Below are positions 61,482 through 64,000 of a stretch of DNA of 64,000 bases, one piece after another (within the stretch, counting starts at the first letter, position 1; each line of letters opens with the position of its first letter). A model generated the notes under the pieces. That model made no database searches. It was not told the origin of the DNA and saw only the letters and a list, made by a program, of their open reading frames with translations. The position numbers and the translations under genes were made by a program. The stretch lies in NCBI RefSeq assembly GCF_024700885.2, contig NZ_CP117016.1; one strand, written 5' to 3'. The stretch comes from Escherichia coli (GTDB lineage Bacteria; Pseudomonadota; Gammaproteobacteria; Enterobacterales; Enterobacteriaceae).

Positions 61482-62687
61482 ATGGCCTTTTCTCAAGCGG
61501 TTAGCGGATTAAACGCTGCCGCCACCAACCTCGATGTTATTGGCAACAATATCGCCAACTCCGCCACCTACGGCTTTAAATCAGGCACGGCCTCTTTTGC
61601 CGATATGTTTGCCGGTTCGAAAGTGGGACTGGGGGTAAAAGTTGCCGGTATCACTCAGGACTTTACCGATGGCACGACCACCAACACCGGGCGTGGTCTG
61701 GACGTTGCTATCAGCCAGAACGGTTTTTTCCGTCTGGTAGACAGCAACGGTTCGGTGTTCTACAGCCGTAACGGACAATTTAAGCTGGATGAAAACCGTA
61801 ACCTGGTGAATATGCAAGGTTTACAGCTGACGGGTTACCCGGCAACCGGTACGCCGCCGACTATTCAGCAAGGGGCGAATCCGACCAATATTTCGATCCC
61901 GAATACCCTGATGGCAGCGAAAACTACCACCACGGCGTCGATGCAGATCAACCTGAATTCCAGTGATCCGCTTCCCTCTGTTAACGCATTTGATGCCAGC
62001 AATGCGGATAGCTATAACAAAAAAGGTTCGGTGACTGTTTTCGATAGTCAGGGTAATGCTCATGACATGAGCGTCTACTTTGTGAAGACCGGGGATAATA
62101 ACTGGCAGGTCTACACCCAGGATAGTAGTGATCCAAACAGCATTGCGAAGACAGCGACAACACTGGTGTTTAATGCCAATGGCGTTCTGACCTCAGATCC
62201 AACAGCGAATATTTCCACTGGCGCAATTAACGGCGCAGATCCCGCCACGTTTAGCCTGAGTTTCCTCAACTCCATGCAGCAAAATACCGGTGCTAACAAC
62301 ATTGTGGCAACCACCCAGAACGGCTACAAACCGGGCGATCTGGTGAGTTATCAAATCAATGATGACGGTACGGTTGTCGGCAACTATTCCAACGAACAAA
62401 CCCAACTGCTGGGGCAGATTGTACTGGCGAACTTTGCCAACAACGAAGGTCTGGCATCCGAAGGCGACAACGTCTGGTCTGCGACGCAATCTTCTGGCGT
62501 GGCGCTGTTGGGGACAGCCGGGACGGGCAACTTTGGCACCCTGACCAACGGTGCGCTGGAAGCGTCTAACGTCGATCTCAGTAAAGAACTGGTCAATATG
62601 ATCGTTGCTCAGCGTAACTATCAGTCTAACGCCCAGACCATCAAAACCCAGGACCAGATCCTCAACACGCTGGTTAACTTACGCTAA
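61482..62687 (+). CDS. flgE: Flagellar hook protein FlgE
   Basis: 401 aa; rod/hook N-terminal ANNIANSAT and C-terminal motifs. Confidence 0.95.
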   Translation: MAFSQAVSGLNAAATNLDVIGNNIANSATYGFKSGTASFADMFAGSKVGLGVKVAGITQDFTDGTTTNTGRGLDVAISQNGFFRLVDSNGSVFYSRNGQFKLDENRNLVNMQGLQLTGYPATGTPPTIQQGANPTNISIPNTLMAAKTTTTASMQINLNSSDPLPSVNAFDASNADSYNKKGSVTVFDSQGNAHDMSVYFVKTGDNNWQVYTQDSSDPNSIAKTATTLVFNANGVLTSDPTANISTGAINGADPATFSLSFLNSMQQNTGANNIVATTQNGYKPGDLVSYQINDDGTVVGNYSNEQTQLLGQIVLANFANNEGLASEGDNVWSATQSSGVALLGTAGTGNFGTLTNGALEASNVDLSKELVNMIVAQRNYQSNAQTIKTQDQILNTLVNLR

Positions 62688-62706
62688 TCGCTGACGGGAT
62701 AGCTCA

Positions 62707-63462
62707 ATGGATCACGCAATTTATACCGCGATGGGAGCAGCCAGCCAGACGTTGAATCAACAGGCGGTAACCGCCAGTAATCTGGCCAATGCCTCTACGC
62801 CCGGTTTTCGCGCGCAGTTAAACGCCTTGCGCGCAGTGCCGGTGGAAGGGCTTTCACTGCCTACGCGCACGCTGGTAACGGCGTCAACGCCGGGTGCAGA
62901 CATGACGCCCGGCAAGATGGATTACACCTCGCGCCCGCTGGACGTTGCGTTGCAGCAGGATGGCTGGCTGGCCGTGCAGACCGCTGACGGCAGCGAAGGG
63001 TATACGCGTAATGGCAGCATTCAGGTTGATCCCACTGGGCAACTGACAATTCAGGGGCATCCGGTGATAGGCGAGGCGGGGCCAATTGCTGTGCCGGAAG
63101 GGGCGGAAATCACTATTGCTGCCGATGGCACAATCTCGGCGCTGAATCCGGGCGATCCGGCAAATACGGTTGCGCCAGTGGGGCGTCTGAAACTGGTGAA
63201 AGCCACGGGCAGCGAAGTGCAGCGCGGTGACGACGGCATTTTTCGTTTAAGCGCAGAAAGCCAGGCCACGCGTGGGCCTGTACTGCAGGCAGAGCCAACC
63301 TTGCGTGTGATGTCGGGTGTTCTGGAAGGCAGTAACGTCAATGCCGTTGCGGCAATGAGCGACATGATTGCCAGCGCGCGGCGTTTTGAAATGCAGATGA
63401 AGGTGATCAGCAGCGTCGATGATAACGCAGGCCGTGCCAACCAACTGCTGTCGATGAGTTAA
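62707..63462 (+). CDS. flgF: Flagellar basal-body rod protein FlgF
   Basis: 251 aa. Confidence 0.95.
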   Translation: MDHAIYTAMGAASQTLNQQAVTASNLANASTPGFRAQLNALRAVPVEGLSLPTRTLVTASTPGADMTPGKMDYTSRPLDVALQQDGWLAVQTADGSEGYTRNGSIQVDPTGQLTIQGHPVIGEAGPIAVPEGAEITIAADGTISALNPGDPANTVAPVGRLKLVKATGSEVQRGDDGIFRLSAESQATRGPVLQAEPTLRVMSGVLEGSNVNAVAAMSDMIASARRFEMQMKVISSVDDNAGRANQLLSMS

Positions 63463-63580
63463 TTAATCGATTGATGACATTGCAATAAAAGCGCGCGGAC
63501 TGTTCCCTCGCCCCTTTGGGGAGAGGTTAGGGTGAGGGGAAATGCGCACCGCCGCGTGCTTCTGCTCTGCTTGTCACTAA

Positions 63581-64000
<420 letters not shown>

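Follow-up and report, generated by a model that had tools for sequence, protein, structure and literature searches.

The G-rich palindrome that lies between flgF and flgG in the window, the whole stretch of 64,000 nucleotides of Escherichia coli DNA that was analysed, belongs to the enterobacterial BoxC repeat family, of which it is a resident copy degenerate by one base. The description of BoxC dates from the 1990s, and the repeat has been studied as a candidate triplex or G-quadruplex element without a function being found. The explanation favored here, which as a whole is considered quite probable, is that a known BoxC copy with the site history given below persists in the flagellar operon as a passenger that is tolerated and plays no dedicated part in flagellar control.

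The BoxC copy in the flgF–flgG spacer

The gene names were taken from RefSeq genomes with 100% identical DNA. The stop codon of flgF is at 63460–63462 and the ATG of flgG at 63599, and the BoxC copy lies between these two cistrons on the sense strand of the flg operon, in keeping with the BoxC/PIT/TMECO elements being always intergenic. The features of the region are the following.

62707–63462, plus strand: flgF coding sequence (RefSeq annotation of identical DNA).
63463–63598, plus strand: whole flgF–flgG spacer of 136 nt, BoxC allele, present in 1942–1943 of 5426 genomes.
63463–63585, plus strand: segment missing in Citrobacter and most Enterobacterales, an Escherichia-specific insertion between GAGTTAA and TACAGGACATTTT.
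63489–63504, plus strand: semi-conserved left flank of the repeat unit, AAGCGCGCGGACTGTT, from the alignment with K-12 copies (consensus aaGCGCaCGgACgGTC).
63505–63539, plus strand: BoxC/PIT/TMECO type A core of 35 nt, read directly, at edit distance 1 from the commonest K-12 copy.
63505–63514, plus strand: C-rich (pyrimidine) block CCCTCGCCCC, read directly, partner of either G-rich block in folds.
63518–63526, plus strand: first G-rich block GGGGAGAGG, one G short of the consensus GGGGAGAGGG.
63527–63529, plus strand: second loop TTA, read directly, which defines type A (type definition from PMC4666352).
63530–63539, plus strand: second G-rich block GGGTGAGGGG, the third strand in the triplex model (PMC4666352).
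63544–63559, plus strand: locus-specific right flank GCGCACCGCCGCGTGC, not conserved at other BoxC copies.
63589–63592, plus strand: flgG Shine–Dalgarno sequence AGGA, unpaired in the predicted folds and conserved in both alleles and in Citrobacter.
63599–64000, plus strand: 5′ part of the flgG coding sequence, which runs beyond the window end (RefSeq annotation of identical DNA).

The first-pass annotation had described a G-rich imperfect inverted repeat somewhere within 63495–63550, and this repeat is real: the core, CCCTCGCCCCTTTGGGGAGAGGTTAGGGTGAGGGG, occupies 63505–63539 on the plus strand, and the palindrome arms CCTCGCCCC and GGGGAGAGG can pair at 8 of their 9 positions. Two arms are indeed there, but the core is more than a two-arm palindrome, being built from three blocks, one C-rich and then two G-rich, as CCCTCGCCCC-TTT-GGGGAGAGG-TTA-GGGTGAGGGG; the third block was missed, as were the BoxC/PIT/TMECO name and the existence of two alleles at the locus. 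The second G-rich block pairs equally well with the C-rich arm, and better in RNA by virtue of one G-U pair. Taken alone, the bare palindrome is not beyond chance: stems of 9 bp with at most one mismatch and loops of 3–8 nt number 118 in the window versus about 42 in mononucleotide shuffles, and the DNA fold of the core has a z-score of only −1.07. The element is nevertheless considered non-random because the 21-mer GGGAGAGGTTAGGGTGAGGGG did not occur in any of 100 shuffles, because the core is a single edit away from the published consensus of a multi-copy repeat, and because the 57-nt unit that contains it recurs across E. coli genomes; a chance palindrome was thus rejected on family membership, the palindrome statistics themselves being weak.

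A full-text literature search with its G-rich half led to the family. Under the name TMECO, 23 K-12 copies were listed by Holder et al. (2015; PMC4666352), with BoxC and PIT as earlier names, the PIT element being attributed there to Hoyne et al. (2000); Kaplan et al. (2016; PMC5100583, and its preprint) treated the G-rich part as HPG1, a candidate G-quadruplex/hairpin switch. The published BoxC family has a unit of 56 bp and about 32 copies. The 36-nt consensus of type A with one mismatch, CCCTCGCCCCTTTGGGGAGAGGGTTAGGGTGAGGGG, which is the commonest form in K-12, was drawn from Table 1 of PMC4666352 and from eight K-12 copies; when aligned, these eight agree throughout the 36-nt core and are semi-conserved over some 16 nt of left flank. 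The core in the window equals this consensus with one G deleted, that is, it agrees at 35 of 36 positions (edit distance 1), its second loop is the TTA of type A and not the CCG of type B, and its conservation extends past the core into the 16-nt left flank, which together with the core gives a repeat unit of about 56 nt.

The missing G accounts for what the copy fails to match. The strict published pattern, CCCTCNCCC N3-6 GGGNGAGGG N3 GGGNGAGGG, had no regular-expression match in the window because the middle block reads GGGAGAGG, and the canonical G-quadruplex motif (four runs of at least three G with loops of 1–7 nt) was lost by the same deletion, the G runs being 4, 2, 3 and 4 in the window copy and 4, 3, 3 and 4 in the EDL933 allele. 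The extra G of the first G-rich block is retained in the EDL933 and O111 alleles, and the EDL933 and O111 11128 alleles of the locus match both the strict pattern and the quadruplex motif.

The earlier suggestion that the palindrome belongs to a short dispersed intergenic repeat was borne out by the genome search that the first-pass annotation had itself proposed, which found many further copies, the element being neither unique nor unconserved. Of 5426 complete E. coli genomes, 5400 contained matches to the 57-nt unit, with a median of 13 places in each (range 1–26); strain 1190, whose flgF–flgG locus has the same sequence as the window, had 14–15. In 5348 genomes some place covered at least 80% of the unit, whereas the flg BoxC allele was found in only 1943. 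The window itself holds a single copy, no other being present in the 64 kb with up to three mismatches, and no BoxC motif was found in the flg regions of 78 other Enterobacterales (455 kb). In K-12, BoxC lies between codirectional genes at pstA–pstB (L015:1996–2030), where the copy is antisense and inside the pstSCAB-phoU operon, and at fabI–ycjD (L011:1706–1740); the fabI (envM) copy is presumably the one at which BoxC was first described.

Two alleles of the spacer and their likely history

The spacer exists in two forms in E. coli. A census of the 5426 complete genomes with a 338-nt query across the spacer gave full cover in 1942 genomes, which carry the BoxC allele, and cover of the coding flanks only (73%) in nearly all others; the K-12-type allele accounts for about 3480 genomes, or roughly 64%, and a few are disrupted. 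The K-12-type allele is a 171-nt spacer built from REP elements (L001:1559–1729), in which the right part is what we take, by the generally known consensus, to be a Y-type REP, while another REP-like palindrome, in degenerate form, makes up the left part. The REP segment of K-12 occurs at at least 40 places per genome. This allele contains the REP consensus palindrome, GCCGGATGCGGCG...CGCCTTATCCGGCCTAC, which is absent from the window with up to three mismatches allowed. The two alleles agree over 8–20 nt directly past the flgF stop and over the final ~30 nt ahead of flgG. Between these ends, the interiors of about 100 nt show no significant similarity (local score 14 versus a shuffle mean of 14.4), and homology between them was rejected as not above the shuffled controls.

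The flanks of the BoxC allele occur at flgF–flgG only, always with BoxC between them (1943 genomes), and the right flank GCGCACCGCCGCGTGC is likewise restricted to this locus in E. coli. When the junction of BoxC with its right flank was sought in other contexts by a metagenome scan, all six matches were the flg locus. Plasmid-labelled records account for three of the 1943 E. coli matches to these flg-specific flanks; such records may be mislabelled replicons or chromosomal fragments. Several haplotypes of the BoxC allele were seen, besides the singleton of HH97 described below: one with the intact 36-nt core (EDL933, O111), that of the window with the G deletion, and one that combines the G deletion with C>T, C>A and G>T changes (WP5-S18, A1_136, O169:H41). 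By a rough estimate from match lengths in an evenly spaced sample, about two thirds of the BoxC-allele genomes have the intact length and about one third the deleted length.

Rarer forms were also seen. Strain HH97 (L097:246–399) has a 154-nt variant of the BoxC spacer with a different left flank, GCGAGGCTAAGCGCCGGGCGGGCTATGGGGG, and an altered third block, GGGATGAGGGG; as this rearranged-flank variant is a singleton among 5426 genomes, with no second locus, its reading as an intermediate or as a gene-conversion tract was rejected. In E138 (L007:1–1500), an IS66-family element, ISEc23, interrupts the K-12-type spacer immediately before flgG, which no longer has flgF as its neighbor.

The comparison across the order places the insertion in Escherichia. 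FlgG loci were collected from 80 Enterobacterales species, 78 of them usable, and the flgF–flgG spacer measures 8–33 nt in 70 of these 78 other Enterobacterales; in Citrobacter, nothing separates GAGTTAA from TACAGGACATTTT-ATG. This short junction marks the segment 63463–63585 of the Escherichia spacer as an insertion. Its ends (63463–63482 and 63570–63585) form an imperfect terminal inverted repeat, CGATTGATGACA / TGTCACTAATC, with GGATACATGACAAG / CTTTGTCACTAATCC in K-12. Both alleles preserve this repeat, and it is base-paired in each of the two predicted RNA folds. The Escherichia-specific insertion shows no evident target-site duplication.

The REP type was found in E. albertii and in a divergent Escherichia (L023), each of which differs from K-12 by about 12% in the region. 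An Escherichia-like metagenome contig (L105; OLSJ01000041.1, 1–3000), which is about 8% from E. coli in the flg genes, has BoxC with an intact core, and its spacer differs from that of EDL933 at 7 of 137 positions, as against 12.6% of third codon positions in flgG and 22.7% in flgF; this low divergence suggests either constraint or a recent transfer (introgression) of the spacer. By parsimony, the REP type would be the older one and the BoxC type would have arisen in or near the E. coli lineage, so that the BoxC allele looks derived.

The history proposed from these comparisons begins with an ancestral enterobacterial junction of probably about 13 nt, at which Escherichia would have gained an insertion of ~150 nt with REP elements in it. 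One lineage would then have exchanged about 100 nt in the middle of this insertion for a BoxC unit with its own flanks, leaving the two alleles that now appear to segregate in E. coli. We know of no transposase for BoxC. Speaking against this history is the search for an empty site or a donor locus, in which the joined flanks without BoxC, used as the query, matched E. coli genomes only with BoxC lying between the flanks, so that the insertion event is not reconstructable. If the history is true, the older state of the locus gives a natural before-and-after pair for BoxC mobility.

Another small repeat has entered the same junction elsewhere. Enterobacter sp. ENT03 (L031:2361–2500) carries a 140-nt ERIC/IRU element at flgF–flgG, where related Enterobacter have 11 nt. 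The spacer agrees with each of the primers ERIC1R and ERIC2 at 21 of 22 positions, and the name ERIC was given to it by these primer sequences, which we take from general knowledge. The presence of ERIC at this position means that the junction tolerates unrelated small repeats.

Predicted RNA structure and possible functions

RNA structure prediction, which had also been proposed in the first-pass annotation, does yield a stable hairpin. In the minimum-energy fold predicted for the core RNA, the second G-rich block, GGGTGAGGGG, pairs with the C-rich block (−21 kcal/mol, z −2.4), and the BoxC hairpin is predicted to be enclosed by a stem of 63491–63498 with 63549–63559 and by an outer stem of the spacer ends. 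The spacer RNA of the BoxC allele as a whole is predicted to fold with −49.6 kcal/mol (z −2.9), and that of K-12, at −59.1 kcal/mol (z −4.6), is predicted to be at least as structured. The flgG Shine–Dalgarno sequence (63589–63592) is free in these predicted folds. BoxC would be transcribed inside the flgB-J mRNA, in which the C-rich block and a G-rich block would form the hairpin of about −21 kcal/mol, nested in the fold of about −50 kcal/mol, with the Shine–Dalgarno sequence left accessible. A pattern scan of 63300–63750 found no terminator-like and no promoter-like sites, and a scan of 62000–64000 against Rfam with E up to 10 gave chance-level matches only, the best of them reaching 19.1 bits against a gathering score of 40, for an unrelated eukaryotic frameshift element.

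The status of the copy is most likely that of a passenger without a dedicated function in flagellar gene control. This reading is preferred because most relatives have no such spacer, because the copy is degraded in part of the population (the G deletion, C>T, and C>A/G>T), and because copies elsewhere lie in either orientation. In the literature, PIT elements were reported to act neither as promoters nor as terminators and to be without effect in vivo, no bias of position or orientation and no effect on expression was found for BoxC-type elements, and loci with such an element were more variable than control loci (PMC4666352). The dimorphism of the flgF–flgG spacer and the repeated entry of small repeats into the junction fit this published variability. 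Two observations weigh on the other side: both alleles are predicted to fold far better than shuffles, and a structured spacer might itself be retained, while the conservation of the L105 spacer hints at constraint, or at recent transfer.

The idea that the spacer is a functional intercistronic RNA, which would act as a REP-like barrier to 3′-to-5′ exonucleases or as a processing site, set the stability of flgBCDEF relative to flgGHIJ, and also uncouple flgG translation from that of flgF, is an unlikely one, even though it draws on the strong predicted folds of the whole spacer and of the core, on the free Shine–Dalgarno sequence, on an alternative allele that is also a highly structured REP spacer, and on a spacer that evolved more slowly than third codon positions in one comparison (L105). 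Covariation across five haplotypes says little on this idea: where variant alleles alter pairs at three positions, they do so to wobble only, but among the 36 predicted pairs there were no compensatory changes and one pair was broken. Against it also stand the 8–33 nt on which most Enterobacterales manage without such a structure, the presence of BoxC copies in both orientations to transcription, as in the antisense copy at pstA–pstB, and a literature without positional bias or expression effect (PMC4666352).

A related proposal is that a structured spacer as such is under selection in Escherichia, and that BoxC was recruited in place of the REP pair as an interchangeable hairpin tuning the output or stability of flgBCDEF and flgGHIJ; this we regard as unlikely.

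Very improbable is a role at the DNA level, in which a non-B structure, be it an intrastrand purine-motif triplex or a switch between G-quadruplex and hairpin, would destabilize the locus by stalling replication or recombination, or else control transcription. The consensus oligonucleotide does form an intrastrand purine-motif triplex in vitro, as seen by CD and NMR, and sequence variability is raised around the elements (PMC4666352); CD data likewise back a G-quadruplex/hairpin equilibrium (Kaplan et al. 2016, PMC5100583), and the locus is variable, with its two unrelated alleles, the singleton rearrangement in HH97 and the IS66 insertion in E138. The G deletion, however, leaves the window copy with only three runs of at least three G and makes the triplex stem one step shorter, DMS footprinting in vivo gave no sign of the triplex, the duplex being the prevailing form (PMC4666352), and the variability may just as well result from repeat turnover as be the cause of it.

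That the hairpin is an intrinsic terminator or an attenuator parting flgF from flgG is hardly credible: a G+C-rich hairpin does stand 43 nt past the stop codon, and such a role was speculated on in a preprint for copies inside operons, but no T-run comes after the hairpin, where the sequence is GGGGAAATGCGC, the scan gave no terminator-like site, PIT elements were without terminator activity when tested (PMC4666352), and flgG-J lies downstream in the same operon with no promoter-like site to restart transcription.

As a discovery the copy has little value, BoxC having been described before; what is added, on a small scale, is the dimorphism of the alleles and the repeated entry of repeats into the junction, and the locus-level picture is of modest value. 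Small repeats of three classes would each have moved independently into a junction that was short in the ancestor, REP as well as BoxC in Escherichia, and ERIC in an Enterobacter; two unrelated structured spacers form a polymorphism of about 36:64 in an essential motility operon. The spacer polymorphism is thus a convenient natural test of repeat effects on polycistronic expression and of BoxC gain.

Comparison with known repeat families

Several other classes were considered for the flgF–flgG copy, which is not a REP, an ERIC, a terminator, a canonical quadruplex motif or a member of an Rfam family; for an intrinsic (Rho-independent) terminator in particular, there is no T-run after the hairpin, and the next sequence is AAATGCGC.

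The closest known system is BoxC/TMECO type A with one mismatch, with which the copy shares the three blocks, 35 of 36 positions and the TTA second loop, as well as the single-mismatch G in the C-rich block, the semi-conserved left flank, the intergenic site after a stop codon, and a number of about 13 copies per E. coli genome. It differs in its middle block, which is one G short, so that neither the strict published pattern nor the canonical quadruplex motif is matched. Furthermore, K-12 has no BoxC at flgF–flgG, and the locus is therefore missing from the published K-12 list of 23.

The REP/BIME elements of E. coli resemble BoxC in being short, G+C-rich, palindromic extragenic repeats of intercistronic and 3′ regions that give a hairpin when transcribed, and REP fills the same flgF–flgG spacer in the K-12 allele. 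BoxC, however, has no similarity to the REP consensus, is made of three blocks and not of two arms, and is present in about 13 copies per genome, whereas REP numbers in the hundreds. A further difference from REP and BIME is that, to our knowledge, BoxC has neither binding proteins nor a RayT-type transposase. ERIC/IRU is, like BoxC, a small dispersed enterobacterial intergenic repeat that is able to fill the same flgF–flgG junction, but with about 127 nt of unrelated sequence it forms a long imperfect palindrome.
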